DNA of 50,470 nt, filler included, from Bipalium vagum (taxonomy: Eukaryota), in the NCBI GenBank assembly GCA_037834085.1. It is 3 parts of 3 records of this genome, joined end to end, with 100 filler letters (N's around TTAATTAATTAA, not from the genome) between each part and the next. Parts side by side here need not be neighbours in the genome. Positions count along the whole stretch, not along the records: positions 17,092 to 33,705 come from JBBMKC010102839.1; 2 more parts are not named here. One strand, given 5' to 3'. Below the pieces are notes generated by a model, which had not been told where the DNA came from, made no database searches, and saw only the letters and a program-made list of their open reading frames with translations. The translations under genes and the position numbers were made by a program. Shown piece after piece: positions 9,201-33,876 of the stretch. Positions within the stretch are counted from its first letter, which is position 1, and the number at the start of each line of letters is the position of its first letter.

Positions 9201-12200
9201 TCAGGCTCCAAGCTGGTATTTTGAGTGCAATTTTGAAGAACTTTTATGGATTCCTTCAACCAAATATCTTGATTTCTTTTGGCATCTTCTAGCTTTAGTC
9301 TCAATTGATCTGTTAACTCTGTTATATTTTTTTCTTCAGTTTCTTTGAGATTTTGTAAGGTTTGCTCCATAGATCTCACTGACATTTGAAAATCCGATAA
9401 TTCCTTGCAAATTAATTTGTTCTCAAAATCTTTCAAATTTTCAACCAACACGCCACATGAAACCTGAATTTTGTTGATCCTTTCGATTTTAGAATAATGA
9501 TATCTGTACATTTCAACATAATCTCCCAACATTTGTTTATTTTCAGATATTATATTATTAATGTCTCTTTCCAAACTTTTAAATATATTTTCCTGATCAA
9601 GAATCATCTCCCACGTTTGTAATTTTAACTGTTTTGTGGAACTTATTTTATTAGTAGACTCAACAATTAATGCCAAAAATTCTTCCTCGCTCAACGTTTC
9701 TGGCTTAACAATTTTTTCTAAGTCTTTAATTAGCGTATCAAGTTTTTCCATTATCATTGGAAAAGGTGTATCCTTATTGTCGCTATTTGAAAATAAAAGA
9801 TCAATTTTAAACAATCTTTCGTCAATATCTTTAATATTGCTTTGAACAAATTCAGTGGCAACTTCTTTATTCAATATTAATTGTTTTTTATTCTCAAGAC
9901 CCTTCAGTGATGCATTTATGGTATTTACTGTTACCTCTATTTCTTGAATTCCTCTTTGCTGTTCTTTGCAACATAAACTCTTTTCCTGGAAATCTTTCAT
10001 TAGGTCTAATAATTTTAATTTAAATTCCACAGATATTTTGACATCCTTTATTAGTTCTTCTTTAGTAATGGTATCTTTATTTGTTAATAATTCCTTTACC
10101 TGATTTCCTATCATTTGACTTTCCGATAGATTTTCAGTTAGGTTGACTATTTTTTCTTCAACTATTGGTTCTAATTTATCAAAATCATCATTAATACTAT
10201 CGATCTGAACCTTCAATTCCGAACCAACCTTATGAGAGAATGTATTGAGCATATCTGATTTCTGTTGATTAATAACATTTATTTTCTCTTTTAATGAATA
10301 CAATAGTTCTTGTACTTCGTTCAATGACCATTCTTTATTTTCCTTCTTTAATATTACTTTCAAAACGTCAATTTTTGTTTTCAACTCATCTAAGTCTGAA
10401 CTTATTTGATTTTTAAGTATGCTTTTTTCCGTACTGATTATCAGATCTTGGGACATTTGTTTTGAGACCACAATGGCTTCCAATATTCTTTCTTGTAATT
10501 CCTTGGTTTTATCACATTGAAATCCTTTTGTCAAAGCATGTTGTAAGTGATTCAATTCATCTACATGTTCGACTATCTGTTGCTTTATATTATCAACGTA
10601 CTCTATATTATCCATATCTTTTAATAATTGCCATTCTTCAACTTTATTCTTATGATCTATTTCCATATTTTCCGCTAATTCAATATTTTGCTTCATATTT
10701 TTTATATTTTCTTCAATTTTATCAAACTTTTCCGACATCATTTTATAATCAGATTTTATGTCAACCTTATTAAACCCGATATCAGAGATGTAATCTTCTT
10801 CTTTTAATGAACTAAGGCATTCTTTAGCCCGACAAGACTTTGTAATAATATCTTCAAAGGTATTAATCACATCAACATTTTGAATGATATCTGACAATTC
10901 TTCAACTTCTTGTAACCTGATTTTTATTCTCTCATACTTCAGTTTTTCGGTTATTTCTCCAACAATTTCTTCTTTTTCTTTCAAAGCAACACATATCCTA
11001 TAATTCTGGTCTTGACCTTCTTTAGATTTGATTTCTGCGATTTCAGGAATAGGATATAACTCCAAACGTTGCTTATATTCTTCTAAAAGCTTTATTTTTT
11101 CCTCACTTTCACTGATAAGGTTTAATTCATCATTTATAAATTTCTGAATATATTTCAATTCACCATTCATTTCACCTATAATTATTTCGGTCTTATCCAA
11201 GCCGTTTAGATATTCTTTAAAATTAATTTCAAAATTATTTAATTGGAGTTTTTTGGATTGAAGTTCGACAGATTTATCGGAATCCTGAAGATTATCGCCC
11301 CAAACTTCTATACAATCTGTTAACAACTGCTCAACTTTATGTAATCTCAAAGAGATTTCTTCCTTTGATAATAATTTATCCAAATCTGTAGTAGATTCTT
11401 TTATTAATTTAACTTCTGTGTCAACCCTATCTAAAATATTTTCAAACATTTTTTCAGATACCATACGTCTCTTGAGTAACAAATTATCAATATTTTCAAC
11501 TTCTTTTCCACTTGAATGATCTAAATCAATTTTCTCACGACATGTCCATTGATCTGATGACCAAGGAAGTAGTAATTTACTCTTTGAGATTATAAGGTTT
11601 TGTTCAATATTTTTTAAGTTCTGTTCATTTTGGATCGGTGTTTCTTCAATTATATCTTGATTAAGTTTCTCATATGTTTCCTGAGATAACTGCTGACTGG
11701 CATTTACAATTGCAAGCTTTGTGCCCAAATCCACTTTCATCTGACAGATATTCAACTCTATGTTACTTAACTTACTTTCGATATCTGAAATTTTATACTT
11801 CATATTTATCTTTTCTGGTGAATTTTCTTGAATCTTTATATTATCAACATTTTTTATTAAGTTGATATTATCTTTCACTTCTTGTATTATAGTTTCGATT
11901 CCATGAATAGAAATAGGACTTTCATTAGAACATAAAGATCCCAATAATTCTGAAATTGAAAGATCAATTTTTTCAAGATCTTTGTTCCAACTTTTTATAG
12001 AAGTCTGTCTTTCTTCTTCAGCGGAAATTTTTGTATTAAGAGAATTAATTGAATCTTTAATAGCATCAACTAAATTTGATCTTTCAAGTTCAACATTCCT
12101 CAGTTCTTGGAAAATGTATTCACTGTCCAAATTAAAATTAAAAACTTTCTCCTCGATATTTAATAATTTATTTCTTTTCTCTAATAACTCCTCTACCGAA

Positions 12201-15200
12201 TTAATCCCGTACTCATTATCTTTGATTTCTAATTCAGTTAAATGATTATAATTTTGATTGATTTCAGCAAATTCCTTGTTCTTCATATTTATAAAATCAC
12301 TAAAACTATTATACTTTTCCCAAAAGTCCCCTGTCGACTTTTCAATTATTTTCAATTCAGAACTCAAGATTTCTCCACATTCTGAATTGATTTCATTAAC
12401 ATCACTGGAAATCTTTTCCAAATCCTTCAAGCTACTGTTCATTTTGTCCAGTTTACATTTCATTTCATCTAGATTTAAACAATTCTTATTTTCTTTCATA
12501 TAATTAAAGAAAATTCCCACATCTTTCAAGGATTCGCTTTTAATATTTTCAAACTCCTTCATCAAATTTTGTAATTTTTCTTCTTCTTCTTTCTTTTCTC
12601 TCTCAATATTTGTCAGTCTAATTTTATTCTGTATACACGATTCATTGACAGTGGCTATTTGATCAATATTAAGAAATCCTGTACACATTTCGGCAGCTCT
12701 TTGAATTTCAGTAAGATCTGACATAATAGCAGTTAGTTCCCCTAACTGTTCTGTCGACAAAAGTTTTGAATTTTTAATCTGAACCTGTTCGAATTGATTA
12801 ATTTGCTCACTGCATCTTCCCGATTTTTTTTCGAAATCCTCATAGAGACTGACTGCTTCAATAACAGGATTAATAACTATCTCGGCATGATCTATGAATT
12901 CATCTATTTTCTTGTTGAGTCCAATGCAAAGTTCAGGAATGTGTCCATTGAAAGCTGAATTTACATCACTAAGTTCAGATCGAATATCGGAAAGCATCTC
13001 AAGATTCGGTTTAACAAGATTCAATAAGATATTCAGATCATTAATTGTTGTAGTAGGAATTTTTGTTTTACTTTTCAGATCTTCAATGATTGGGTTCACT
13101 TGAGCTATGATAGATTGTACTTTAGAATCAGCTTGGATTAAATTATTTAATAAAATATCACTTTCCTTCTGTGCTTCTAGTTTTGAATTTAAAGAATCAA
13201 TATTTTCTTTGACTTTTTTATCTAGCAAAGAAATATTGTCTAATAAAGAGGCTATTTCTGTAATATTTGAGTATGGTCCATTATACGATATCAAGTTGAT
13301 TTGGTTTTCTAAATTTTGATAATTATCCTTCTCCTTCATTAGGATTTCAGTAGAAACCATTTCTACATTTTCAGAACATAATTTTCCATATTGAGAATTG
13401 ACTTTCTCGTAAGCCTCGTGGATCTCATTAATTGTCTCAACAATTTCCACATAAATTTTACTAAACTTATCTTTAATAGCTTGAACAGATTCCATCTTGA
13501 TGTCATTAATAGTACCTTCTTGAATATCAAGTTTTTTTATTTTGTTTAAAGTTACCATCATAACATCAGCATTTTGATTTGACCAGTCTAGGGCCTCCTT
13601 AAAGTTGTTGAGAGGTAATGTAATATTCTTGTCTTTTGTTTTTTCGATTAGATCTGTTAAATTTTTTAAAATTTCTTCTTTTGTATTATTAAAAATCTCT
13701 GATAAATTTTTAACCTCTTCTTCCTCTACACTAATTCTTGATTGTTGATTCGAAATTTCAAACAAAAGTGCTTTTATTCTATCCGTACAAGTCGTAACTT
13801 CATTGTATAAACCTCTGACTTCTTCGACATTCAGTCCGATTTTGTCCATTTCAATATTATCTGAAATTTCATTCAATTGGTTCAATATATCATTTGCTCT
13901 TTTCGATATAATACTCAACTTAATCAAATCATTATCTTCCTTAAGATCTTGTTCAAGAATATCGATTTTTTTCGATATATGTACCAAAAATTCTTTATTA
14001 ATACAACATTGATTTACGGTCTTCATCAATGGATTGATCATTGACTCTGTAGATTTTACACAATCATCAATTTTATTGCATATGGCAGTTTGAAATTCTA
14101 ACATTTGGGGTTGGACGAGTGGTTCCTCGAAATGGAGCTCGCTGACTTTTATTTGATTTAATGTATTATTGTTTTGAATGATGGTGTTCGTCAATAATTC
14201 AATATCTGTCAAAGATTTTTCTGGAGATTTTAGTAAATTTTCTAAATCTCTACTACAATTGTTACTATTTTCTAATAAAGCCTCAACTTCTTTGTTGGAA
14301 TCAACCATTTTCTCATGCTGACTGTCTGCTAACTTTAAGAAATTCAATAAATTATTCAATTCAATTTTTTTCCCATGTATTTTTTCTATCAATTGTCCAT
14401 CATCTTTTACAAATTCTTGAATTAATTGTTTTTCAAAATCATCAAGCTTATTTATCTGTAATTTCAGGGTGTGAATATTCTTTTCAATGGAAGTTGAGAT
14501 ATTTGAGTCATTTTCTTTTATGAGATCATCGTTCTTCAAATCGCAAATATCATTTATATTTTCTAGAAGGATTTTTTGATGCTCCAGAGTTTTAATATTT
14601 TTCGAAATCACTACTTTTAAATCTTTTATTTTGTGATCCATCTCTATAAAATTTTTATTATCATTGCTGGTCTTATAAAATTCTGCTCTTTCACTTATTT
14701 CTCCTAATTTTTTATCTAATTGGAGACTGAGTAAATAATTTTGATTTATGACCTCAATGTTACAGCTGTCCCATTCAGTTCCTTCCAAACGATTTTTCAA
14801 CTCATTGAGATCGTTTGATAAAATCAGTTGTTGTTTTTCTCTTTCTTGTACATTTTCCTTATTTTGAGAAACAGTACCTAATTTTTCGTCAATATACCTA
14901 TTTTTACTTCCAAGCTTAAATTTCAAATCCTCATACTTTTCTTGTATCAAAGGACTCAATAAGATTTGATTGTTTTTAAATTTCTCACAAACTTCTTGTA
15001 AATTTTCAGTTAATGTCACCATTTTTTCGTCGAATTTCTTTAATTGGCTTTTCATTAAAAATAGTTCTTCATCTCTTATTGCTTTTGATGATGTTTCATC
15101 AACTGATAATTCTAAGCTCTTTTCCGTTTCTTTAATTTCTTGAATAAAACCTCCACAATAATCAACTGCTATAATCTTTGATAAACATTGTTCACATATT

Positions 15201-16776
15201 TCTGAACTGTTCTTTAGACTCTTATCAATTTGCTTTGAAAATCTTTCATAAAATTTTGAAGTCTGAAACTCTTGGAGAAACAATTTCGACAAGCCAACTT
15301 TGTCATTAATGATTTTCATTTGATCATAGTACGAGTTTAATCGACTGATCAAGACTTCATAAATCAACTGGTTGTCAGTATTTATCATATCTTCAAAGAT
15401 CTGTAAGCAGATGTTATTAATTTCTTCTGTGATACATTGGTTTTCTTGTTCCATTTGATCTGAGAATAAATTGTCTATATCTTGGTTTATTTTGTCGATA
15501 TAATGACGAATTTCAACTGACAATGGATGAAGTTTGAAGTGAATAAGTAATTCTTTCAAATTATAAGGAATAAAATTTGAGTCCTCAGATTTATTAAACT
15601 GTTCAATGAATAAACCGAGATTTCTCTTATATTCTACGGATTCTGACATTTCATCAGAAATAAAATCGCCGAGAGTATTTGCTAATTCTTGAATTTTGGG
15701 CATTAGAGAATTTAGATCAAGTGTTTTTTCCTCATACTTTTGTTTCATCAAACCAGTATCAGAATATAAATTGTCTAGGAAATCCAACTTTAATCCAATG
15801 TTACTTTGTGAGAGTTTTCCGTTCTTGATAATAAATGTACAGTTTTCAACCCAGTCAGAAAGCAAAAATGAAGAGTTAACAAGAACGCAACAAGATTGTC
15901 TCCATTGTTCCAACTGTTCTATGTTATGAATATCTGCCAAACTTTTTGATAAATTGTTTATGTTTTCATTTAATCCCTTTAAATCATATAGTATTATATC
16001 CAATGACTCTTTGTTCCAATTAGGACAGCCTAACATCTCCAAATCACAATTAGTAAAAGCAATTTTTTCCAAGTTCCCATCCATTCTTTCTACTTTTTCT
16101 TCTATAGCCTTGACACAGGTTAATTTTTCGTTGTTGATAATATCTTGAACTGTAAAAAGTGGAACATTAAAAGTACTTTTATTGATGATTTCCAAATTAG
16201 TATCAATATTTGATATACATTTCTGAAAGATTTTTTGAAAAATTTCACTAATCACAGTTTTTTCTTTTTCTGATAGACTTTTCTCCTCTTTTTGGTAATC
16301 AGGTTCGTCTTTAGCTATTAAACTATTACTCTGGTCGGAAAATAATGACTGAACTGTGCTTGATATAATGACATCTTCTTCTGAAGTCATAAAGATGAGC
16401 GGATTATCTTTTTCTATCATTTCAGATTTATTTTCAATTGACAAATTAGTCTGATTGAACAACTGAATTGATTGAGATTCCACAAGGTCGCAAAGCATTT
16501 GAATATTCTCAATAGATGGTAGTATCATTTTAGCCACCTCTGGATCATTCAGCTCAATCTCAACAAACTTCGACTTTGAAATTTCAATAACATGGCTTTG
16601 TATAACATGGATTTGTTCAACAATTCTTTCTTGTTGTTTTAAGTCACTCAGCAACATGTTTTTAGAATTTCTTCCACTTTCTATGAATTGCTCAAGCTGC
16701 ATCTGCAGCAGTTTAATTTTTTCCGTTTCCTGTTCTACTTCTTCTTTGATTTTGATCGCTTGGGAAATTGTGGATC
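114..16776 (-). CDS. Partial multi-exon gene for a giant alpha-helical spectrin-repeat/coiled-coil protein (nesprin/ANC-1/Msp300 or spectraplakin-like). Exons 16776-8858, 8808-8500, 6967-6638, 3945-2875, 2763-2590, 2546-2403, 1640-1317, 1268-1095, 287-114; both ends lie outside the contig.
   Basis: All nine exons have AG/GT boundaries and splice in frame (all internal junctions phase 0), giving 10,619 nt with no stop. The protein is E/K/L/I-rich with heptad character and has spectrin-like Trp helices (YKRDIYEFSLWISNE, CILTWIESKR, DVLKWEKD, LLSDWVENC). The family call is an inference because no CH, KASH or GAS2 domain is in the window. Confidence 0.8.
500..900 (-). mobile_element. Degenerate mariner transposase fragment (intronic)
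   Basis: Minus-strand translation NVMFCVWLNFGGIIIFERISDGRTFNSDL (~640-743) resembles the mariner KVMLCVWW..GII..ELL...TINS block. Confidence 0.6.
1095..1268 (-). CDS. Exon of giant gene (MHHKSPIY...LAYVE)
   Basis: Follows a 48-nt intron; atAG|ATG and GAG|GTATTT boundaries. Confidence 0.78.
1317..1640 (-). CDS. Exon of giant gene (DILKKSTD...VNQMNE)
   Basis: ttcAG|GAT and GAG|GTTTTT boundaries; ORF 1299..1727. Confidence 0.8.
1746..2267 (-). mobile_element. Internally deleted Tc1-like element with both TIRs
   Basis: Inverted repeats TA|tgctcatcgtcaaaaattttaggtaggt and TA|taatcatcgtcaagagtcttaggcaggt, both TA-flanked. Frameshifted N-terminal paired-like HTH (ERCRIVGLFEAGLSQ...PKSGRLR) in ORFs 1938..2147 and 1739..2002. 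Confidence 0.8.
2403..2546 (-). CDS. Exon of giant gene, absent from the ORF track (KLVEELEIKK...YEHHLL)
   Basis: Follows a 43-nt intron; ttAG|AAA and TTG|GTAGGC boundaries; 144 nt, open frame. Confidence 0.8.
2590..2763 (-). CDS. Exon of giant gene, absent from the ORF track (DSNQSDD...YEFSLWISNE...SSVQ)
   Basis: ctcAG|GAT and CAG|GTAACA boundaries; 174 nt, open frame. Confidence 0.8.
2875..3945 (-). CDS. Exon of giant gene (MISIRLEEAAG...NGDIN)
   Basis: ORF 2845..3945; taAG|ATG acceptor and AAT|GTAGGA donor; 1071 nt. Confidence 0.85.
6638..6967 (-). CDS. Exon of giant gene (DLKIQLTEK...EKIQNTN)
   Basis: ttcAG|GAT acceptor and AAT|GTACAT donor; 330 nt; phase 0. Confidence 0.8.
7163..7700 (+). 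mobile_element. 5' relic of a pogo/Tigger-like DNA transposon
   Basis: TA|cacttaaacctcgttat TIR-like end with an internal repeat cctcgttataag; ATG at 7384 gives MNKRVRLNIQEKRK (psq-type HTH start). Confidence 0.5.
7850..8290 (-). mobile_element. 5' half of a mariner element
   Basis: ORF 7880..8074 (MLYEFHKG...FRRFRDGD..LE.RPGR) is the mariner HTH; TIR TA-TTGGGTCATTGCAAATGTTCGGGCCCGATTTT at ~8257-8290. Confidence 0.8.
8500..8808 (-). CDS. Exon of giant gene (CLKKGLACK...LFKENL); alternative in-phase donor at 8488
   Basis: ORF 8422..8805; acceptor ttAG at 8809-8810; phase 0. Confidence 0.75.
8858..16776 (-). CDS. Giant 7,919-bp internal exon of the spectrin-repeat/coiled-coil gene
   Basis: Corresponds to the 2626-aa ORF. 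Acceptor tttAG|GATCC at 16777-16778; donor GAG|GTTTGG at 8856-8857, followed by a 49-nt intron. Confidence 0.85.
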
Positions 16777-16861
16777 CTAAACATAAATAAATGTGTTTCT
16801 TGGTAAAAAAATAGTTGGAAAATAAGTATTTTTGAAATCTTTACATAAAATAATAAAAATA

Positions 16862-16991
16862 CACTACCGTGCAAAAGTATTGGGACACTTGATTTTTAAC
16901 GAGAAATATGCGTCAAAAACAAAAATTGACGTGATTAGAGATGCTAAATGTTCTTGAAATACAATACTATGTCCAGCAAATATAATATAAC
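16862..16991 (+). mobile_element. Tc1-type terminal inverted repeat truncated by the assembly gap
   Basis: TA|CACTACCGTGCAAAAGTATTGGGACAC. Confidence 0.55.
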
Positions 16992-17091
16992 NNNNNNNNN
17001 NNNNNNNNNNNNNNNNNNNNNNNNNNNNNNNNNNNTTAATTAATTAANNNNNNNNNNNNNNNNNNNNNNNNNNNNNNNNNNNNNNNNNNNN
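16992..17091. other. Assembly gap spacer N44-TTAATTAATTAA-N44
   Basis: Exactly 100 nt with an all-frame stop linker; identical spacer at 33706-33805. Confidence 0.97.
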
Positions 17092-17649
17092 TAAGATTAT
17101 ATAATCTTTTAGAAACATTAAATGAAAGAGTAATTTATTGTGATACTGATAGTACAATATTTATTGATGATTCTTGGGAAAATAAAAATTGTAGTCATGA
17201 AGAATGCGCGCCTGTTAGAAAAATTACAAGGAGAAAATTTAGGAGATTTAACAGAAGAAGTTGAAAAAGATGTTGGGATTGGATCTTATATAATAGAAAT
17301 AGTTGTACCTGCTCCAAAAGATTATCATATGAAAATTTGGAGTACTAATAAAAAAGAAATAGTTACATCAGATAAAAAAAAAGGATTTGTAAAAAATAAT
17401 ATTAATTCAAATAAACTAACTTTTGAAAAGAAAAGGAATTTAGTATTAAATAATCCATTTAACAAAAGCAAGGAAGAAAATTATGAAATCATTGAAAGTA
17501 TAAAATTTAAATTAACAGGAAATAGTTTTAATAATTTTAATAGAATACAAACAATAAATGAAATAAAAATGTATGATTTTGATTTTAATAAAAAACAGAT
17601 CACATATTTAGAAAATGGTAATGTAATAACTTATCCATACAAATATTAA
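17092..17649 (+). pseudogene. C-terminal part of protein-primed family B DNA polymerase (pPolB), frameshifted near 17220
   Basis: RLYNLLETLNERVIYCDTDS (YCDTDS at 17136-17153), then in the ORF frame GENLGDLTEE...YI.EIV.PAPKDY...KKKGF...K.YDFDFNKK...TYPYKY*. Confidence 0.9.
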
Positions 17650-18057
17650 AAATTTTATTGCTTAGAAAAAAAAATTGATTTACCAACATGCAAGTTGAGG
17701 GGGTTATTCCCCCAACTAACAACTTACCAAATAAAAAATATAATTGTTGGATGTCTATACCAAAAAATATTTGGTTTGAAGATATTGAAATTTGAGGGAG
17801 AAATTGTCCTCTAACTATAAACTTGTCAAATTAAAAAAAGTATACATATATAACAAACATTTATTTTTATTTACAATCATGAAAGGTGGGTGGCTAAAAA
17901 CCAACCACCCAACAACTCTTCAAATGAAAAAAAAAGTTTGTATATTTATACTAAAAAAATATTTGATTTATAAATATGTAAAGGTTAGTGAAATTTTATG
18001 TCACAAACTAACAAATTGACAAATTAAAAAAATAATTGTGGTATACCTGTAGTGTTC

Positions 18058-18153
18058 CATATTTTACTTTCATTATTAAAAAATGTGGCTATTACAAATA
18101 ACATCATATTTTACTTTCATTACTAAAAATGGGGTCATTACAAATGACCTCAT
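18058..18153 (+). repeat. Two imperfect ~48-bp tandem direct repeats upstream of the endonuclease gene
   Basis: catattttactttcattattaaaaaatgtggctattacaaataacat / catattttactttcattactaaaaatggggtcattacaaatgacct. Confidence 0.75.
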
Positions 18154-18179
18154 AAAAAAATCAAATTTTATTTTAAAAA

Positions 18180-18764
18180 ATGGCGAATACAAATTTAATT
18201 ACTGAAAATTGTCAAACTGTAAATTTAAATAAATGTTCACAATGTAATTTGATAAAACCTATTTCTGAATTTTATTCAAAAATGAATAAATGTAAAAATT
18301 GTCATAAATCTAATGTTACACAACATAGAAATATTCCAAAAAATAAAATAAAATAAAATATAATAATATAATATATAATAATAAATAGAAAACAAGAAAA
18401 TCCAATGTTATAACTTCAACAAAATTTATATACCAGTTTAAGTAGATGTTTAAAAGAACGTAGAGAATCTAAACATTCAGAAGAATTATTTGGTGGTACT
18501 CTTGATTTTTTATATGAGTGGATTGAGTTTCAATTTTAGGATGGAATGACATGGGAAAAGCAAGGATGTTTTTGGCACATTGATCATGTTCTTCCAGTTT
18601 CTAAATTTGATTTTGATAATAAAGATCATTTTAAAACATGTTGGAATTTGAAAAATTTAAGACCATTAGGAGCTGATAAAAATCTAAGTAAAAGTAATAA
18701 AATTTATTATAAAGAATATTTATTTCAAGAAATTAAAGCAAAGTATTTTGAAAAAGAATATTAA
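18180..18764 (+). pseudogene. Zn-ribbon plus HNH-type endonuclease of the giant-virus/phage MTWENYG-WHIDH family, disrupted
   Basis: ATG 18180 ...KCSQCNLIKPISEFY...KCKNC; after a frameshift, FLYEWIEFQF*DGMTWEKQGCFWHIDHVLPVSKFD...CWNLKNLRPL.ADKNLSKSNK. Confidence 0.8.
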
Positions 18765-19035
18765 AAAAACGGAAATATTTCATAATTATTTAAAATGGAT
18801 AAGATGAAAAAATTTATAAATTATTTTTTTCCAAATTTACCAAACTTTTGGCAATAAAAAAATGAAGTAAAAATTCGGGCGAAGTCCCAAGAGAGCAAAG
18901 TGCTCGTAAAAATTAATAAAAAAAATAATTATAATGAATTCAATAATTAAAAAAGCATTTTATCATATGATGAAAAAGTTTAAGAAATTTTGATACCATT
19001 TTCTTAACTATAGAAAATTCTTAAAAATAAAATTT

Positions 19036-20286
19036 TTATAATTCTCCCAATTTTGATTTAGTTTCAAAATTAATCATTTTTCCACCTCCAAGTTTTATTT
19101 CCATAAATTTCTCATGTAATAAAACATAATTTAAAAATCCTTTAAAATAATTTTCTTTTTCAATAAGTAAAGTTATTGTTGCTCCATTTATACATAAATT
19201 TTTTGCTTGATCTGTTAAATCAAAAAAAATATGGAATATAACTTCAAATTCTAATAAAGATAACTGTGGATCATTCTTAAAATATTAAGATGCTTCTACA
19301 TAATTCAAATAAGTTTCATCATTGTATCCTTTCTTAAAGTTTTTTGGTTTTAAAGGATAATAAGTATCAACAAGTTGAATTTGTAAAGATTTAATTTTTT
19401 CTTGAACAAATAAACTATTATTTTTTTTATTGCCAATATCTGATTCTCTGAAACCAATAAATAAATATATAGAAATATTAGGGATAATATATATATATTT
19501 TTATTGTTTGAATTGTTCCTTCAGTTAATTTTAATTCTAAATAGTTCTACATAGAAAATTAACATAAATATTTTTCTCATCACTCATTCTTGAAATAAGA
19601 TTTAATCTTGCTTAATTATTTAATTTTATTGATGGAATAATAATGAAAGTTTTTTCAATTTTATTTTTGGTTGTTGATTATCTAAAACTCCATGTGTTCC
19701 ATAAAAAATTTCTTTTTCTAAATTAGTTATTTTTCTTACTAATGTTATTTTTCCCTGGATATTATATAAAGCTTTTCTAAAATATTGCAAAAATCCAAAC
19801 ATTAATTTTAAAAGAAATCTTCCTCTGCATGTATTATTTGAATATAATCTATTTCTAGATTTAAAACCCGTATTTGTTTTTAGCTTCGTTCTCTTTAATT
19901 TTATCAGAAATCCAACCAAATAATTCTCCATTATTATTTTTATCAATCATTACAAAATTTGTTATGGAATTTGATGGACCTAATTTTTGAATAGTTTCTA
20001 TTTCTGTTGATACTAATTTTAATGATGTATTTGAAAATAATTACGGAAAAAATTTATTCTGTAATGTAATAATTTCTTCTGCCTTAACATTTTTAATTTC
20101 GATTTCATAAATAAAATATGCATTACATATTTCTAAAGAATTTGTTTTAGGTGTTATTGTAAATGTTAATTTTCCTGTATCATTTAAATTTTTTATTGTT
20201 TCTGGATCTAAGCTTACTTCATCATAATCAGTTTTCTCATATGTTGTTTTTCGATGATAGTAATTTTATCATAAAAAAACTTCCAT
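19036..20286 (-). pseudogene. Polinton major capsid protein (double jelly-roll), with stops and frameshifts
   Basis: Reconstructed blocks: NLNDTGKLTFTI..NAYF; TLQNKFFP*LFS...EIE...G; FGW...NTGFKSR...LKLMFGFLQYFRKALYN...TLVR; YLFIGF...NNSLF...YYP...LSLLEF...FFDLTDQ. Size ~415 codons. Confidence 0.8.
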
Positions 20287-20419
20287 TTTTTTATAAAAAA
20301 ATATAATTTTGCAGTAAAGCAGCTTTTTGCTTAGAGAACAAAGTTCTCGCTGTTGGTGACTTCATCACTAATCAAATGCACAGCTTTGCTGCTAGTTCAA
20401 CTTAGTTGAATGCTGATGA

Positions 20420-21155
20420 AATTATCTTTTTTGTTTCTAAATTTATAAAAAAAATAATTATATTTTTATTTTTATGAAAGTTAAATAAATAATCAAATTC
20501 TTCTTTTTCAACAAAATGAGATAACATTTTTGAATAAATTTGATTTATCATTTTTAGAAATTTCAAATAAAATTAAAACATTGGAATTTTTTTTATTCCT
20601 TCTTAATGGTAAATCAAAAAAAGATTGTGATAAATATATTACTGAACATTTATTATGTCTTCCTCTAGTGAAATACTTCCATTATATATTGAATTTTTCA
20701 TTTATTACATCATCAAATATAATTAAGTTTTTAACATTTTTGGAAACATTACATCCAAGAGCGAAGCTCGTATTTAATTTATCTGGTGGTTGAATTTCAT
20801 TTGTTTTATCAGATAATGTCACTTTTATTTCTCTTTCTTTATGTTTATAATTTTTTTCATAAAATTTATATATATTTTCATTTTTAAACAGTTGGCAAAC
20901 TTCATCTTTTGATAATCCATAATCAAAAAAATCCTTAATATATTTTAAAGCTGGTTGAAGAAAAGCAGTTTTAGAAAAAATAATCAAATTTTTATAATCA
21001 ATATAATCTTTTTTTAATAGCGTATTATATAATAACACTGTTTTTCCTGAACCAGAAAGACAAATTATCAACATTCTAAAAATTGAAGGTAGATTAGAAT
21101 GATGTTTAAATTTTACAGAATTATTATTTAAGAAATCATCACAATACAATTCCAT
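20420..21155 (-). pseudogene. A32-like (FtsK/HerA superfamily) DNA packaging ATPase, frameshifted; 3' end approximate
   Basis: LPSIFRMLIICLSGSGKT (degenerate Walker A) and NLIIFDD (Walker B); after the frameshift, KYFTRGRHNKCSVIYLSQSFFDLP. Confidence 0.9.
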
Positions 21156-21259
21156 TTTTTAAAATATAATTTGACTTACTATTATTAATATTTAAACTTT
21201 TTTGAGGTGCAGCTTACCTTACAAGCTAGCCTTAAGCTCTATCACTTTTTGAAAGCAGG

Positions 21260-22056
21260 TTATATCTGCTTTAAGTGAATTTTCAAACTAATTTCTTCTC
21301 CATTAAAATCTATTAATTCTCTGTTATCATCAATTATTCTAAAATTTATGACATAAATATTTGTTGTAATCACAGGAAAATAAATCGGAAAATTTGGTTC
21401 TTTATTAATTTTATATTCTCTTTTAATAGTATTCGTAGGAAAATCATAAATAATAGTGTTTTTTATTATTAAAATACAATCCACTTACAATATCACAATC
21501 AACCATAATTGTATTTATATCTGAAATATTAACTTTTTTAGAATAATAAACTTCTTCTTCATAAGAATTTTTAACTTCAAATCATAAAAAATTTGCCAAT
21601 GAATTTTGAACAAGAAAAGATATTTTGCAACCTTTAGATATTTCCATGATACAGTTTGCAGAAATTGGATTAGCAACAATCTTAAAATAAAATTTCTTTT
21701 TCTAAAGATACTAGATCTTTGTCATATTTAAATTGGTACTCGATTGAATTAGAAATATCTGAAATTTCATATGCTCCAGGACCTAGTTTGAAATTTAATT
21801 GTTTATTTTTACCTATTGAATCTGTAATATCTAAATTGATTCTATTATTTTTTCAGTAACATTCAAAATTGAATTATAAGTGGAAAAATAAACTAAACCT
21901 AATTTATAGTTTATATTGTCTTTAAGTTTTAAAGGATAATCTAATCTTAATTTTTCTTTCTGAACTATTTCTTTTTATAAGAAATGATGTTGAAAATTTT
22001 TCAGATAAAAGGTTTGTTATTTTTCTTAACGATTAGGAAGCTCCACTAGATTACAT
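21260..22056 (-). pseudogene. Polinton minor capsid protein (penton, single jelly-roll), disrupted
   Basis: YPLKL...YKLGLVYFSTYNSILNVTEKNN...GAYEISDI...VNISDINTIMVDCDIVSG...IIYDF...YKI.KEP..PIYFPV...RIIDDNRELIDFNGEEISLKIHLK. Confidence 0.85.
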
Positions 22057-22069
22057 TTTTAAATTTATT

Positions 22070-23048
22070 TTTTAATAAAAATCTGTAAGTAAAATTTTTT
22101 TTGTTTCTTTTATTCAAAATATTTTCATAAACCTTTGGTTTAATTCTTTTTTGTTTTTTTAAATTTATTTAAAATTTTTAAGAATAAATGATCAAGATTA
22201 TCTTGTCCAGGTTTTTTAGCAGATAAATATTTTAAAGTTACAAACTGATCAAGTGCATACTGAGGTTTCTCAATTTCATAACATTCTCCTTTTTTTATTT
22301 CATTTTTTTCATTAAATTTATTTTGAATATTTTTCATATATATTGAATTCATAGATCCTTTAACATATCTTATTAGATATTAATAATTATGCAAATCTTT
22401 TAAACTATAATCTCGTTCAATTATTCAAAAAAATATTAGCATAATCTTTACCTTCAATTAATGATTTAAAACCTTCTGATAACACTCCAGAATCTGGTTC
22501 ATTTTGTTTCTTAAAATTTATTTCAGTACCAATTTTAAATAACTCAAAAGAAATTTTATTTATTGTTAAAATATTTTTTTCAATTGATGGTTTAAGCGAA
22601 TTTGGTAACTCTGGATTGATATGAAAATAGTTTTCAAAATTAAAATCATATTTAGGAGGTTTTTCAATTTTATGAGTAAACAATTTTTATTCATTTTGCT
22701 CACTAATGTCTTCAGTTAAAATATAAGTATTTTTGTCCAATTTTTGATTTCTTTTGGCAAAAGTCACTGCGTCTTTTTTAGTTTCTTTTTCGATTTGTAA
22801 TTTTTTTTCTTTTTTATCTAATTTAGCTAGTTTTGCTTGAGTACCGAGGGTGCTAGTGCCATGGGCATGCTTAGATTTATCAATCGTATCAGTAACTGGT
22901 TTATGAAAAGTTGTTAAATTTTCTTCTAATTCTCTTTGTGCTTTCATTGATTTACTATTTTATTATTAAAATTTTCTACTATTGTTATTAACTTTTTTAA
23001 TATTTCAATTTCATTTTTATTATCAATTACATTTTGTTTTGGGTTCAT
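22070..23048 (-). pseudogene. Uncharacterised Polinton protein (coiled-coil N-terminus with FHKPVT motif), split over ORFs 22687..22947, 22417..22683 and 22140..22352
   Basis: Three abutting same-strand ORFs after a TAAAAAATG start; LEENLTTFHKPVTDTI resembles the F-K-P-[IV]-T motif of a conserved Polinton ORF (recalled, not searched). Confidence 0.55.
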
Positions 23049-23299
23049 TTTTTAAAAAATAAAATAAGTATAAAATCGTACTATAAAAAATCAAAATAAT
23101 TTGTAGAAAAAATTGTCAACAATAAATCATTTTAAACTTCTTCCCATGGGAAAGTAAAATATTCAATTTCCAAAAATCATAAATATCTTGAAGAGAATTT
23201 ATTTCTGTATTTTTTAGTTCTGGATGAATTTCTAACAAACATAAAATTTTAATTAACTCAAATATTTTTTATTATTTAACTCACTCATTTTTTAATATA

Positions 23300-23940
23300 T
23301 CTTTTATATATATTTTTAATAAATTTTTAGTCTCTTTCGTGGTTGAACCACTAGGCTGTTTCACAGATGCTCTATACTCTTTTTTAGTTCTATTTTCAAT
23401 TCTTTTTTTGCTTCGTTTTCTAAATTTTCAATAATATTTCCCGATTTGATCTTTTTAATATTTTCTATACATTCACAAATTTCTCTGTAAAGTATTTTTC
23501 GTTTAAAAGTTATTCCTATGCTAATTGTTTCTGCAATAACTCTGAAGACCTAAAATACTAGTTGTAAGAGAAATATATATTAATAAACTAGTTCCAATTG
23601 TTGGTACATCAGACATAATCGCTGATCCAATTCCTAAAACACATCCATATCTTAAAAATGAATCTATTTTAGTATATTTAAATTTTAATTTTTTATAATG
23701 TTGTAATAAATTTTTTAATACTTTTTTCTCATTCGTAAAATTTTCTATTTTCATTTTTTCCAATTGCGTGATAATAGGATTATGATAAAACTTCGCTGGA
23801 TTTAATAATGGATTAGAGAATTGAAGATCCTCCATGAACTTCGCTTGATTAGAAAATCCTTCGTCAACTTCACAGGCAAAATTGTTTTGTAAAACAGGAT
23901 AAATAGGAGCAGTTGGTTTTTCAATTTTTTCAATTTCCAT
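23300..23940 (-). pseudogene. Predicted membrane protein of the Polinton (possibly the adintovirus 'gasderminX' class) with N-terminal PTAP-IYPVL
   Basis: ORF 23521..23940: KPTAPIYPVL, basic helix HYKKLKFKY, then two hydrophobic Gly-rich segments; basic tail after a frameshift. Confidence 0.55.
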
Positions 23941-23959
23941 TTTTAAATAAGAAATTTAA

Positions 23960-24809
23960 AATTTCAGGGAGTAGACATAGACTATAAAAAATTTACAAGA
24001 AATTTCTCAGAACGCTACGTTAAAGCATATATTAAGATAGAATCTTTTCATAAAAACTTCAATTTCTTTCAGTTGATTGTTTAATAAAAAATTATGAAAA
24101 ACTATAATATCATAAATTTTAATATTTGCTGAATTAAATCTAAATTTATAATTACCATTTGATGGAAAAATTGTTGAATATTTTTCTTCTGAATTATAAA
24201 AAAATGTGAATGCGATTTAAAATTTAGTGGTTTATTACAACGTAAAAATATTATATCAGTTCCTGTATATATTTTTTTCTTGAACAAAAGTTTTTCCAAG
24301 AGGTCTTCCATTAACCATAAAATAATTCCTATAAATATTATACCAACCAAAAACATGATAATTATTTGTTGTTCCAAAATTAATAATGGTATCGGCACGG
24401 AATTTTGGAATTGAGTGAAAGATGGCGGAAGACGATAGACTACGACGGATTGTATTTTGAATATTAATTATACTTGTATTTTTTGTTTTGACTTATTTTA
24501 ATTTTTTCAAAATAGTGTCTAAAGACTTATGGGACACCCTAATATCAATTTCATAATTGATTTTTCTACAACTAAAACAATTGTAAATTCGAGACCTTTG
24601 GTTTCAAGAGCGGAGCCTGCATCTTTTATTTCTGCTATTAACTCTCCTTGAAAATATCCAATATCATTTTTATAAATTCTTAACAGACTAGAGGTTGTCT
24701 TTTCAGTAGTAATTTCAGATGTAAAAGATTTCCAATACGATCTCCATGAAATAGGATTTAATTTTTATATTATTCATTAATTTCTGAATCTTCAGATACT
24801 TTATTTCAT
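23960..24809 (-). pseudogene. Unknown Polinton ORF interrupted by a mariner fragment
   Basis: TAAAATG start at 24809; fragmented coding-like sequence on both sides of the insertion. Confidence 0.35.
24390..24542 (+). mobile_element. 3' end of a mariner element inserted in the Maverick
   Basis: HGILELSERWRKTIDYDGLYFE matches the mariner C-terminus; right TIR gacttatgggacaccctaa|TA. Confidence 0.7.
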
Positions 24810-25145
24810 TTTAGAAAAAATGTGGAATTTTCCGTTTTTTACCCTGCAGGAATGGAAAAGTCCCACTAAATCATTTTTTAGTTGTTGGATTTTATTTTTT
24901 ATTATCTAAATATTCACACTCCATTTAAGAGAAAATTTGATTTTTATTAAGAGACTCTGTCTCTCAAGAAGCGAGTTTTCAGTTCTTGCACTTTCAGTGC
25001 GCGAAGCTTTGTATTTTTTTTTACTTATTTATTTTTTATTAATTTTTTAAACATTTTTGAATTTTTTATTTTTTAATCATTAAAAAGAGTAGTATGTAAT
25101 TTTATTCTTTTTCTTCTTATTATTATTATTCTTATTATTTTTTTT

Positions 25146-25258
25146 ATATCTCCAGCATATCCCGCCAAAAATATTTTTTTGAATAATCGTGTGCACACGC
25201 ACACGTGAATGAAAAAAAATTTTTTTGAGGCGCGGGATATGCTGGAGATATTACTACT
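25146..25258. repeat. Maverick terminus with subterminal palindrome (perfect 20-bp arms) and terminal AGTAGT
   Basis: ATATCTCCAGCATATCCCGC (25146-25165) / GCGGGATATGCTGGAGATAT (25232-25251), then TACTACT ending at 25258. Confidence 0.85.
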
Positions 25259-25912
25259 ATTGTTTTCTGTTATTATTTTGATCAATTTGATCAACGATCA
25301 ATTTTATGGAGATTATTTTGATTCAATAGCGCGATTTTACAGTAAAGTCTTCGTGGTTATTTTGATCCAACTGAGGATGAATTTTCGAGGTTATATAGAT
25401 TTAATGGATATGATATCAAAAAAGTGAGGAGTTAGGAAAGTTCAAGCTTAAAGTTACATATTCCATTGAATCCATAAAAAATTTATAATTTATTTTATTT
25501 TTGAGATTAATCAATTATTTTAAAAAAATTTTTCAACTGTTAATTTACGATTATGTTCAATTCATTAGTTTACAATTTATAAAATTTAGTTTTTAATTTT
25601 AATTTAATCTTTACAATTAATATTTTTGCATATTCTGGTTTATTAATCCAATTTGTTATTTTCATTTTAGTTTGAAAAAATGATATATCTTTAGTGTTTT
25701 CTCAAATTTCACAAGAACATCCAGATTTTCCTTTTCCAAAAAATGTGATTTCGAAGCTTTATTAATATTTTTTAATATTCATACTTGAGTAAGTCATTTA
25801 AATCATAAAATAAAATATATTCAGATGAAACTTTAACCTTAGTGATCAATTATATTCTGTACCAGTATGAAATTAATAAAATATGTTTGTAGAACTGTTT
25901 TGATCAAAATAT

Positions 25913-28900
25913 CTATTCAGGTGGTTCGACACAGACTTTTATTGCCAAATGTTTTGATGGGATCGATAATAACACTCTAAAAATATATATTATTCATATA
26001 TTGTTACACAATATTTTTATTGCTAATTTAATCGAGATTTTAAATAATAAACCTCCAAAATTCATTACAAGACCTAGTTTTATTAATTTTTTGATAAGTG
26101 AAGTAGAGGAGAAATTTACTAAAAATAAAAATGATTATATATATGATCAAATGTGTTCTTTACCCTACAAATAAAACGAGTTTTGATAAAATTATAAAAT
26201 TAATAACTCTTTAATATTTAGCTTCATTAACCATGAATATTTTCAAGTACTTCAGGCAAATTTCAGGAGATAATGACGAAGGTTGTCGGTTGTATAAAAG
26301 GAGTAATGGTCTATCTGGACGACTTATTAGTGTTTACGGGAACTGAAAGTGAGCATTATAAGGTTCTGAACGAAGTACTAAGAAGAGTGCGGGAAGCTGG
26401 ACTAAGGATAAATACAGAAAAGTGTCACTTGCTGAAAGAGGAAATTAAGTTCTTGTGTCATGTGGTGAGTAGAAAGGGGTTAGAGACAGACCCTTCAAAG
26501 TTGGAGGCGATTAAAATTTCGAAAGGCCAAAATGTGCAAAAGGATTGAGAAGCTTTTAGGGATCTGTAACTATTATAGAAGATTTATAAAAGAATACTCG
26601 AAAAGATCTAGGCCCTTGCAGAGAGTGTGTGGAAAGAGTAAGAAAAATTAATATGGACACTTGAGATGGAAGAAGCGTTCAAGGAGATGAAAAAAGCATT
26701 AACATCAAGTCCCGTTATTAAGAAGGAATTTATTCTAGATACAGATGCAAGTTTTGATTCAATAGAAGCAGTTCTATCTCAACTGGACGAAAATGAAAAA
26801 GAACGAGTGATAGCATACGGCTCTCACGCCATGAGCAGCCATGAAATTGGTTACTGCATTACTTAAAAGGAATTACTGCTCATTTGTTACTTTTGAAATC
26901 ACTTTTAACATTATTTATACTGAAGGAGGTTCAGGCTGAGAACGGAACATAAAGCAATCAACTTCATGATGAGTACTAAGAAGCCGATCACGTCGCAATT
27001 CCAAACGAGGATTAATTACTTGAGCAGTCTTGACATTAAGTTCGAATACAGGAAGGGTTCGATACATACGAACGCATATTTGTTATCTAAACCAAGATGC
27101 GAAACATGTAGTCACTGCCAATTAGTGCATGAGGAGGCGAAGAAGGGAAAGATGAAATTCAGGATGTTGGATGCAATAAGCACAGAAGACATTAAAGATG
27201 CAGAAAAGAACTTGATATGACATGTTCGTACATTGTTGACTCATGTAGATACTGAGAAGGTCGTGGAATATATGAAGGGGAAACATGATATAAAGGGTTT
27301 GTGAAGTAAAGTACGGAGGGTATTGTCAGGGTACTAAGCGTTTCAGAAGCATAAAGTGGTTATATCAGCAACAAAAGAGGCCACAGTGAAATTGTAAGCA
27401 TCTGAAATGTTTGAGAACATTTATGTCGACATCTGCGGTCCGTTAACGGAAACCAGGAGGAAGAAAAAGTACATCCTAGGCATAATAGATCAATACAGGA
27501 AATAGATCTGTTTAACTGCGGTAGCAAGGCAGGACGAAGAGACAATTATAGAGAAATAAAAAAAGTTTGGTTTTCAAGTCACAAGACTATCAATGTGGAT
27601 GGCGCAAAAACATTTGAGTCAAAGAAGATGGCAGAGTTCGCGAAAAGTAAAATTCAGAACTACGGTTCTCAAGTCAATACCACCATAACACTAATGGCCA
27701 GATCGAACGGCAATTTAGAACTATTAGGGAGAGACTAAATGCAGCTAAAGCAGAACAAAGAAGGAAGGATTGGGTGGAACTATTGTCAGAAGTTGAGTTT
27801 TCATTTAATGCAACAACGCAGAAGACGACAGGATGGAAATTATATTTGGCAGGGGCATAGACCGAGAAAGAGGGTATCCGTCGAGAAAGAAAGTGGATAT
27901 AACGGAAGTGGAATAGATGACGAAAAAGATTTTTGAAGTTGGTGAAAAAGTCCTGGTCAAAGTGGAAACGAGGAACAAGGACCAGCAAAGACACGAAGGT
28001 CATTATTGAATCCAAAGAAAGATACATGGAAGACGGTATTTGATAGAACACGCAGATGGAAGAATTCTGGAGAGGAACGATGAGAAGTTAAAAAATTATT
28101 GAGAAGGGGATATAAGGAGTGATTAGAACAATTAGTTTGCTTGAATTTTTTTAAATAAGGACCTCACACCTAAATTAACAATTATTAAATGTTTTTAATT
28201 TAAAGTTTTTAAAAATTAAATTACGTTTTTAAAGATATTTAATGAAATATTTTAAATAAATATTAATAAATTTTAAAAAGGTAAATAATTTAATTTTAAA
28301 AAATGGTGAAATTCAAGTTTGAAAAGTTTGTTTGAGTAATCGGATTTATTGAAATATCTTATCATTGCTTTGATTTTGAATTATTATTTAAAATGACTAC
28401 ACAAGAATATAACTAATGTTATAAAAAAATTGATCAATTAAACAAAAACACTATATAATTCATCATTCTGACTAAAACTAAAAAAATTTTTTTATAATCA
28501 CTTTGAACCGGGTTTTTAAAATTGTGCAAAAAATTAATAATATATAAAGTTAAATAAAAAATATAAATTTAAGAAAAAAAAATTTAACAAATAAAATTAC
28601 TTGATTCCTGATCTAACTCGATAAAAGCTCGATGCTTGTAGGTTGATAATTTGAGAGTCAACAGTCAATGTCGCGTTTCCTTTCTGGAAATTTTTAATAT
28701 AATATAAATTTAATAATATAATATATAATAAAAAACTGAATATTTATTAAAGTTTGGTTTATTGTTTTACCAAAATGTATTGGTTATCAAATTAATTTTT
28801 AAAAATTTTCACATAAAAATCAATTAAGTTTGTAATAGATTGTAATTAAAATTCGACATTCGAATTATAAATATAAAGTATTGATCTTCATAATTAATGA

Positions 28901-31900: not shown

Positions 31901-33556
31901 GGAGCTAGATCTGGATTATATGTTGGATGCTATAAGATTTCAATATCTAGATAGTTAATTATTGTTTTAGATACAATACCCATATGCGTCTAGCATCATC
32001 TTGATAAAGAGTGACTCTAGGAATTATTTAATCAAATTTATTCCTCTAAAAATATTATAAATCAAAGGTTTTTAAATTATCAGACAACGAAGCCCTTTAA
32101 ATTCTTTTACAAACACTAATTACTCAAAATATAACACACACTGAAAAAAATTATATACGCTAATTATCGGATTTTCATATTTCCAAAGATTAAATTTTTT
32201 TAATTAATATTAAAAAGAATTCTATATGATCCTAAAGTTCTTTTTATTTAAATTCTGGCTTTATCAAAGATACAAAATTTTTCGAGAAACCCAACAAATT
32301 TTCAGAGAACCATTGGGTTCAACGGAAACATCATTGTGAATTTCTGCTCTAAATCCAAATTTCAAGAAAAGAACTAATGAGAGCTTTGATTTTCAGTGAT
32401 GATTAATGGTGAAATCTATCAAATTAACATTTTAGTTTTGATTATTATTGTTAATTGAAAATTAATTGGAGATACCGGGATTCGAACTCAGGAACTTTCA
32501 CGTGCACATGGACTGCTCTGATCGCTGAGCTACACCCTTAAATTTTCAATTTATCTAACATTTCCATCCTTTAAATCTTTTATACAGACCCTTAACTCCC
32601 CGAGTCTCTAACTTCCAATTCTTTTCCTTTCCTTTGCTTTTCCACTTTCGAGACCTCGTCCGCTGGTTGGTGTTCTGATGAGGTCGTCATGTTAATTGTA
32701 GTTAAGAAGTACGTGAAAAGAATCAATTATATAAAAAAGTATAATAAAATTAGTAGAGGTTTCAACAACTGAGAAATGTTTCACAAAATTGGGAACAATG
32801 TCTACTAAGTTTTAACAGAAGAAAATTGACATTATTAAAATTTTTAGTCATTTATTGAATCTACAAGTCCACAAAATATAATGAAAAATGACAAAAATCT
32901 CTTTTTTCGAAATTGAAAAATCAGAAACTAAAATGTTTTATTTTATTTTTCAAATTTCTTTTAAATAAAAAGAAAAAAAGATCCTGGATTTCGTCAGTAT
33001 GTATTAACAAAATCGGTAAAACTTTTTAATAATTACTTATAGAAAAATCGAAACCGGAACTATTAGCAATTCCTAAAAGTGAATATAAAAAATGTTTCCT
33101 GTCATGGTAGAAGTGATGGCACAAGTGCATAGATGCGGAAGGAGACTATTTTGAAAAATACTAAAAATAAATTTATTTTTTGTGTATATTATATACTTTA
33201 TAGCTCCATTCCGGGAATGTATTGAACGCACTTTGTATATTAATAAATTTTTTTTTATTTTAAAAAATTAAAGCGATACTTTTGATCGATACTCGTTAGG
33301 ATAAACGCTGACACATCCTTCAGATTCAATTAGGGTTTCGTTTTGCTTAATAAAATCTTCTATGGGTATCGGAAAAATCAAATTTAAGTTACACCTCGGC
33401 TTTATTGGCGGTTCTTTTCTATTTTCTAACTTTGTTAAATCGTTTCTTTCTGCATTTTTCCTTGCTTCAGTGGCAAGCTCACTGAGTTGAACTTCCAAAC
33501 TTTCTATATGAGAGTAAATCTCATATTTGATATTTGTAGTAGGTTCGTCGAAGTAT
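25913..33556 (-). CDS. Last four coding exons (33556-33280, 31583-31518, 28683-28601, 25976-25913) of a host gene with a coiled coil, a Pro-rich motif and a divergent C-terminal SH3-like domain
   Basis: All exons are AG/GT-bounded and phase-consistent (0, 0, 2), ending in TAG: ...EPPIKPR...FDIINNYDTIIWMYKGNATLTVDSQIINLQASSFYRVRSGIKVLLSIPSKHLAIKVCVEPPE*. The SH3 call is inferred from the YD..KG..LTV..[FW][YW]RVR..IPS pattern. Confidence 0.7.
26250..28110 (+). mobile_element. 5'-truncated Ty3/gypsy LTR retrotransposon pol relic (RT-RNaseH-integrase), intronic and antisense to the host gene
   Basis: VYLDDLLV (RT); FILDTDAS..AVLSQ...VIAYGS (RNase H); EYRKGSIHTNA; GPL...KYILGIIDQY and YHHNTNGQIERQFRTI (integrase); polypurine tract gagaagggga at 28101-28110. 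Confidence 0.92.
28111..28403 (+). repeat. Probable 3' LTR of the gypsy element (right boundary uncertain)
   Basis: Begins immediately after the PPT (tataagg, possibly a mutated tgtaagg); candidate ...ctacaca end. Confidence 0.4.
29376..30192 (-). mobile_element. Internally deleted mariner with both TIRs
   Basis: TA|ttaagtttataagtatgactc and TA|ttaggtgtgtaagtataactc inverted pair; ORF 29382..29621 contains SSDINLLDFHMVHSLQ...LHNWIDGWI...ERWTKV. Confidence 0.8.
30195..31163 (-). mobile_element. Degenerate maT/DD37D-like Tc1/mariner element with both TIRs
   Basis: TIRs taaggacgtcgatataaattcgggaa / catgggcgtcgagataaatcgggaa; motifs RKALVLELLRTGK, SDEKIF.Q..KVN, VVGNEGQIMP, VVKPWID, APANKARKTQ. 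Confidence 0.75.
31633..32050 (-). mobile_element. 3' mariner relic
   Basis: HPTYNPDLAPPDFKLL at ~31882-31929 (YSPDLAP motif). Confidence 0.7.
32467..32539 (-). tRNA. tRNA-Ala(TGC)-like pseudogene or SINE head
   Basis: agggtgTAGCTCAGcgatcAGAGcagtccatgTGCacgtgaaagttcctgaGTTCGAATCccggtatctccA: A and B boxes present, but acceptor and anticodon stems are mismatched. Confidence 0.6.
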
Positions 33557-33634
33557 CTTAATAAAATATGTTTTTCAATTTAAACATTTTCTATTACAAT
33601 AAATTAATTTAAATTACAAGGATTTGAGAATGAA

Positions 33635-33636
<2 letters not shown>

Positions 33637-33705
<69 letters not shown>

Positions 33706-33805
33706 NNNNNNNNNNNNNNNNNNNNNNNNNNNNNNNNNNNNNNNNNNNNTTAATTAATTAANNNNNNNNNNNNNNNNNNNNNNNNNNNNNNNNNNNNNNN
33801 NNNNN

Positions 33806-33876
<71 letters not shown>
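33637..33876. repeat. (TTA)n and (TAA)n microsatellites flanking the second gap
   Basis: Read directly from the sequence. Confidence 0.95.
33706..33805. other. Assembly gap spacer N44-TTAATTAATTAA-N44
   Basis: Same artificial linker as 16992-17091. Confidence 0.97.

Follow-up and report, generated by a model that had tools for sequence, protein, structure and literature searches.

The window analysed here, 50,470 nt of Bipalium vagum DNA joined from three parts of the assembly, contained a hairpin of 106 nt with 41 paired positions, located 7 nt inside the putative end of an element that, on the evidence of its gene remnants, is a decayed Maverick/Polinton. The reading that we favor, and to which we give about an even chance, is that this hairpin, represented by one decayed copy, is an intrinsic sub-terminal palindrome of the TIR at the true Maverick end and served protein-primed initiation.

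Structure and stability of the hairpin

The following features were assigned to the hairpin and its immediate surroundings (positions along the window).

25088-25094, + strand: another AGTAGTA, oriented toward the hairpin; either coincidental (about 1%) or left over from a complete inverted copy of the end; without TSD
25095-25145, + strand: degenerate (TTA/TTC)n tract of 51 nt, abutting the inner arm
25146-25165: inner perfect arm
25166-25180: middle helix, inner side
25181-25212: 7x7 internal loop, non-complementary at 5 of 7 positions, followed by the apical 7-bp stem (25188-25194/25199-25205), with which the palindrome CGTGTGCACACG (25188-25199) overlaps
25213-25227: middle helix, outer side; self-palindromic A/T unit, also a direct repeat of 25167-25182
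25228-25231: 4-nt bulge
25232-25251: outer perfect arm, nucleotides 8-27 counted from the end, 50% GC
25252-25258, - strand: terminal 7 nt, unpaired in the MFE and centroid structures, among them the Maverick end motif (AGT)2, which reads ACTACT on the + strand at 25253-25258 (motif type as in PMC8097293); probable right terminus
25259-26236: right flank, without element-like minus-strand coding signal and without family or homologue match

The two outer arms (25146-25165 and 25232-25251) were complementary at 20 of 20 positions and spaced 66 nt apart. From the base of the stem, the order was 20 bp, a 4-nt bulge, 6+8 bp, the 7x7 internal loop, and 7 bp closed by a 4-nt loop. In the middle helix, 25166-25180 paired with 25213-25227 with a single mismatch, and the whole 106 nt formed a single degenerate palindrome. 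Folded as single-stranded DNA, the region from 25140 to 25265 reached -39.2 kcal/mol (z -10.9), a stability equaled by none of 200 shuffled sequences. The opposite strand reached -39.5 kcal/mol (z -12.1), and the 66-nt interior folded alone gave a z of -4.4. The perfect 20-bp arms, the nested palindrome, and the seven unpaired end nucleotides described in a first-pass annotation of this DNA were all confirmed by alignment and folding; its proposal that the end could fold on itself was supported in that either strand can fold locally.

The whole window was scanned for perfect inverted repeats of at least 12 bp with loops of up to 300 nt. The hairpin was the only one with more than four G/C per arm, and the only one longer than 16 bp besides a pair of (TTA)n tracts on either side of an assembly gap; its outer arm (50% GC) was G/C-rich compared with the other repeats of the window. 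Among sliding 120-nt windows (n = 1,247), the two most stable both came from the hairpin. Rfam returned generic hairpin matches only, the best of which scored 31.6 bits against a gathering threshold of 245 for MIR2646.

That the arms have stayed perfect although the genes are decayed, as had been pointed out earlier, is true, but it says little about constraint. Three stops in 651 codons of the aligned gene pieces correspond to about 2.6-3.1% substitution (95% range 0.5-9%), an estimate possibly biased low by the choice of alignable pieces, and at about 3% decay the probability that 40 arm nucleotides remain unchanged is 0.25-0.30 (range 0.02-0.70). The intact arms are thus unremarkable. Across all 49 arm columns, seven differences were counted where three were expected from decay (P 0.03-0.06), a count to be read with the faster mutation of A/T runs in mind and unremarkable at 5% decay (P 0.27). 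None of these differences was located in the outer 20 columns (P 0.018). This excess, with no difference falling in the outer 20 bp, modestly suggests a bulged structure of some age whose outer arms were under constraint.

The decayed element and its probable right end

The following features were assigned to the element left of the hairpin.

16992-17091: assembly gap; the element's left end, second TIR, and TSD are absent from the window
17094-17649, + strand: family B DNA polymerase (PolB; YCDTDS motif), C-terminal remnant, frameshifted, the remainder lost in the gap; matches the related loci L042 and L083
18177-18764, + strand: zinc-finger and HNH/endonuclease VII-like remnant (phrog_1035, E 6e-5)
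19075-20244, - strand: double-jelly-roll major capsid gene, in pieces; matches proteins of L023, L060, and L090 (PF21738) with E down to 6e-11 against the window
20408-21155, - strand: A32-like packaging ATPase with one stop and one frameshift (PF04665, E 3e-4, below the curated cut-off)
21263-21947, - strand: frameshifted homologue of the post-ATPase gene of related Polinton loci; putative minor capsid gene by position
24013-24405, - strand: decayed accessory ORF, homologous to the orphan protein P0029 (E 9e-23 against the window)

The earlier identification of a Maverick was borne out by the ATPase, the double-jelly-roll capsid gene, and the PolB remnant. For the A32-like ATPase, 28 homologues were found among 160 candidates, with the best being 62% identical. 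The homologue search gave no scored homologue of the PolB tail; the remnant is C-terminal only, and the protein-priming subdomains fall in the missing part. The product of the post-ATPase gene had no Pfam match and no meaningful PDB match, and its designation as a minor capsid protein, taken from its position, is presumptive. Beyond the P0029-homologous ORF, coding remnants reached about 24760-24880. The gene order from the gap rightwards was therefore PolB (+), HNH-like (+), and then, on the minus strand, capsid, ATPase, the post-ATPase gene, and further ORF remnants. Neither an RVE integrase nor a cysteine protease was found in 17092-25258, the element being cut by the gap on its left, and the scanned pieces of the element gave no match to a Rep nickase.

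Additional repeats were observed within the element. Behind the PolB stop, direct repeats of ~165 bp (17675-17839 and 17866-18032; 69% identical), each opening with a G/C-rich stem-loop, are possibly duplicated terminator or promoter units. A 46-bp tandem duplication was present at 18058-18154, upstream of the HNH-like gene. Short hairpins (5-6 bp, 3-nt loops) were located in intergenic spots at 18893, 20334, 24950, and 24988. The density of such small intergenic hairpins was 1.1 per kb in the element against 0.9 outside, and they are thus no marker of its extent.

Position 25258 is probably the right end of the Maverick/Polinton. The terminus proposed there earlier gained indirect support from the loss of coding signal and from the end motif, which falls short of a direct demonstration. 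A codon model was trained only on element pieces left of 21500. Its score for 22200-24880 (22 windows) exceeded that of background (183 windows, p 2e-9) and that of 25259-26236 (8 windows, p 0.001). The minus-strand coding score of 25259-26236 was that of background (p 0.57), and the element-like signal already faded ahead of the hairpin. The motif ACTACT is separated from the outer arm by one base, on the side facing away from the genes. The chance of an end motif within 5 nt of an arm is about 7e-4, and ACTACT was not enriched in TTA-like tracts (1/4407 vs. 14/95957 windows). An end motif of the (AGT)2//(ACT)2 type, present here at one end of the element, is the commonest end of vertebrate Mavericks (PMC8097293). 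Between the last ORF-like start and the motif there are about 385 non-coding bp, which fits the TIR sizes reported for vertebrate Mavericks (46-1447 bp, mean 402; PMC8097293) and therefore counts for 25258 as the end. It is the coding signal at background beyond this position, together with a canonical (ACT)2 beside the arm, that makes it the probable terminus.

In a search for a 6-bp TSD, the right-hand 6-mer was found to precede no AGTAG anywhere in the window. In six frames, the right flank gave no Pfam or homologue match and one weak 22-residue PHROG match (E 0.024); atlas searches gave no matches. These flank negatives are weak, because 22000-25000 likewise matched none of the related loci. 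A BACK-domain-like reading of the flank, made by eye, was dropped for want of Pfam support.

Possible role of the hairpin and alternative origins

A role in protein-primed initiation is suggested by the fold itself, since nucleotides 8-27 are paired in it and exactly the terminal repeat and one further base stay free. Protein-primed polymerases start on an internal template base and then move back by sliding or jumping, for which a terminal repeat is required (PMC4974454), and Polinton polymerases carry a terminal-protein domain (PMC11161782). In the mechanism that we propose, the palindrome would have lain at the outer edge of the TIR while the element was still active, and would have served ordinary protein-primed initiation, not self-priming. 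In duplex DNA, nucleotides 8-27 would be shown twice, in inverted orientation, as putative binding sites. The displaced strand could refold so that nucleotides 8-27 become duplex again, which would rebuild the duplex origin and keep the (ACT)2 template single-stranded for jumping-back initiation. Given an intrinsic feature, we estimate that the refolding role comes close to an even chance, that duplex binding sites are a plausible but lesser possibility, and that the absence of any replication role is unlikely.

Adenovirus regenerates its duplex origin via an ITR-ITR panhandle. For the present end, a 113-bp duplex between two ends was computed at -145 kcal/mol vs. -79 kcal/mol for two local hairpins; the panhandle is therefore favored at equilibrium, and the local fold would have to win kinetically. 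It is decidedly unlikely, in our judgment, that the element belonged to a lineage in which each end refolds locally, with a duplex origin (nucleotides 8-27) beside a 7-nt (ACT)2 tail and no distant TIR pairing for second-strand protein priming. In such a lineage, occasional trimming of the tail would make the hairpin a primer and may seed palindromic snap-back derivatives. If it existed, its origin would be intermediate in type between ends primed by protein and ends primed by a hairpin.

Among the alternatives to an intrinsic palindrome, an independent fold-back MITE of 98-104 bp, inserted in the (TTA)n-like tract at the Maverick tip or nearby by chance, is unlikely. The left flank is strongly (TTA)n-like (25088-25145 ranked in the top 0.2% of window stretches), TTA/TAA is the target of PIF/Harbinger elements, and with trimmed arms a duplication can be read as TTA (non-palindromic), TA, or ATAT. 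In size and in its A+T-rich, self-folding interior, the hairpin resembles fold-back MITEs such as Sola1_NA, with a formal duplication of AWWT, the Sola1 target (general features in PMC3845634). However, TA and ATAT duplications are automatic for a stem starting with ATAT, the TTA duplication is by our estimate about a 1-in-10 match in T-rich DNA, and the right flank is weakly TTA-like (top 4-9%). High copy number defines MITEs (PMC3845634); within the 50 kb of the window, the hairpin was present once. No matching transposase is known for it, and it sits at a Maverick end motif, for which a MITE would have had to make an improbable landing at most about 10 bp from the terminus or to meet the 7e-4 motif coincidence given above.

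It is quite unlikely that the hairpin arose in this copy or its sub-lineage alone, by copy-back of the end on itself or by template switching. Taken to the extreme, this explanation would make 25088-25258 a mini-Maverick in which both ends are AGTAGTA and one arm has gained 51 nt by repeat expansion. It would account for the single degenerate palindrome formed by the 106 nt and for the inner AGTAGTA at 25088, which equals the seven unpaired terminal bases (chance about 0.7-1.1%). Against it, 25088-25258 is flanked by no 6-bp TSD, the 51-nt insertion would have to fall exactly between motif and arm, and the clustered internal loop and bulge exceed the decay expected in the present copy. As a MITE or as a private duplication, the hairpin would be ordinary.

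That the element runs past 25258 is very unlikely. The hairpin would then be an intergenic terminator or polyadenylation hairpin, and AGTAGT would derive from TAG stops, stacked, of a minus-strand ORF lying upstream; in the right flank, one minus frame does end TAG TAG TAA on the motif, the structural genes are all on the minus strand, the integrase is missing, and small hairpins lie between other genes. The background-level minus-strand coding score past 25258 speaks against this, as does, more weakly in view of the equally unmatched 22000-25000, the flank without Pfam or homologue match.

The ends of parvoviruses and AAV carry an imperfect terminal hairpin of about 100 nt, at which the paired 3' end primes and Rep nicks. 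Parvovirus- or poxvirus-like self-priming, the former of which had been suggested in the first-pass annotation, is hardly credible here: the bulged fold is very stable, and self-priming has been proposed for the terminal palindromes of virophages and PLVs of Halocafeteria (bioRxiv 10.64898/2026.07.28.741278), but those palindromes go preferentially with non-pPolB elements (same preprint) whereas here a PolB remnant occurs together with an end of (AGT)2, a repeat typical of protein priming, no Rep or resolvase was seen, and priming of this kind fits poorly because the 3' end of the hairpin is unpaired over 7 nt (MFE and centroid) and could prime only after trimming, with loss of the end motif.

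Related ends, known systems, and genomic surroundings

No second copy of the hairpin was found in the 50-kb window. Among sequencing runs, a single one, X1, contained the stretch, with 0.74 of the sampled words, and is possibly its source. An 18-mer from the arm had two matches in viral_contigs, both in unrelated sequence and neither with the second arm. The terminal 15-mer matched at least 121 stretches; of the 80 examined, none contained the second arm, and the best fold was -15 kcal/mol. No phage matches were obtained. Protein-anchored searches for loci returned mostly fragments. In 86 related loci (312,633 bp), perfect repeats of at least 20 bp occurred only in L007 and L045, none of them adjoining an end motif. 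Both TIRs were found only in L090, which had no long stem. Ten ends of related elements were folded, of which about four were plausible termini from three elements (L090 at both ends, L104 and L109 at one end each); none of the ten was hairpin-like, with the longest perfect stems being 6-10 bp and z ranging from -3.4 to +1.4. The folded relatives were all distant and carried another PolB type, so their ends indicate that the hairpin is not universal, and nothing more.

L090 is a complete Polinton with AGTAGT ends, in which an inverted repeat (1-1131 and 15474-16929; 99% identical) runs ~770 bp beyond the motif on both sides. This outer repeat is either an assembly artefact or an insertion at a palindrome center. 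Long imperfect internal palindromes were observed in L089 (14079-14294), L109 (11572-11751), and L110 (5705-5884).

The closest published counterparts were the palindromes of Halocafeteria seosinensis, which are described as lying inside TIRs, beside TSDs, in virophage subtypes 1, 2, 5, and 6 as well as PLV subtype 4, with hairpin priming proposed and accidental annealing given as an alternative (bioRxiv 10.64898/2026.07.28.741278). As is probable for the present element, the palindrome is in the TIR near the insertion boundary of an integrating Polinton-related element. According to the same preprint, the Halocafeteria palindromes are at the extremity (52 nt in subtype 5) and in all complete members, mostly together with non-pPolB replication genes. 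In contrast, the present hairpin is 106 nt long and bulged and is set back 7 nt from an (AGT)2 end; its one known copy is in a PolB-bearing Maverick. The link to non-pPolB genes does not extend to this element as far as it is preserved, a PolB remnant being present; the missing part may have carried another replication gene. Since terminal palindromes of virophages and PLVs were thus already published in a July 2026 preprint, the end architecture, previously put forward as unusual, is not new in kind.

Vertebrate Mavericks (PMC8097293) and adintoviruses (PMC8502044) share with the present element, as far as described in these sources, the (AGT)2//(ACT)2 motif, PolB, ATPase, and capsid genes directed inward from the two sides, and a TIR-sized non-coding end. 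They differ in gene order, and the integrase, protease, second TIR, and TSD were not seen in the present element. In a term look-up, "hairpin" and "palindrom" were absent from the accessible text of PMC8097293, PMC10748475, PMC8502044, and PMC12220804; in that of PMC11296320 and PMC6431247, hairpins were mentioned only for poxviruses and Helitrons. The passages searched in the literature on Maverick/Polinton ends yielded no paper on such a fold-back in an animal Maverick.

The typical telomeres of Streptomyces may offer the best functional analogue of the hairpin: palindromes just inside a protein-primed end form folds in the single-stranded state, which place the priming complex (PMC4513846). 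They differ in being bacterial, in having several short palindromes, in end patching by Tap/Tpg after internal initiation, and in lacking homology (PMC4513846). In adenovirus and phi29 origins, as in the present end, a terminal trinucleotide duplication suits jumping-back initiation, and no local fold-back is described for them in the accessible part of the same source (PMC4974454). Unlike parvovirus and AAV ends, the present hairpin leaves 7 nt unpaired and is accompanied by no detected Rep.

Maverick/Polinton replication is still a model, with a racket or panhandle intermediate (PMC4196379), and the accessible text of the surveys searched described no cis-acting end features other than the 6-bp motif. 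If conserved, a fold-back whose offset matches the initiation repeat exactly would be a concrete, testable origin structure. Terminal palindromes would thereby reach beyond protist, mostly non-pPolB elements and include a PolB-bearing Maverick, and the hairpin could account for the origin of palindromic derivatives.

The surroundings of the element, which belong to an AT-rich host, were also characterized. An intact open frame of 2,672 codons on the minus strand (8822-16840) belongs to a giant coiled-coil host gene, nesprin/spectrin-like by eye, with smaller exons at 1299-8808 and probably at 33268-33579; the smaller exons scanned gave no significant Pfam match. To the right of the element, one further feature was assigned.

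26237-28110, + strand: decayed LTR-retrotransposon pol remnant (RVT_1, E 3.7e-13), Gypsy-like by inspection; unrelated neighbor

The Maverick and the retrotransposon remnants seem to lie inside an intron of the coiled-coil gene. In the middle of the gap at 16992-17091 there is a palindromic A/T island of 12 bases, probably an artefact of assembly or of a linker. At 33637-33876, (TTA)23 and (TAA)23 face each other across a gap and produce an inverted repeat that is long but spurious. Immediately to the left of the gap at 16992, the segment 16860-16991 has a start that we take to resemble a Tc1-type terminal repeat, and a Tc1/Tc3-like transposase remnant was located at 42550-43350.
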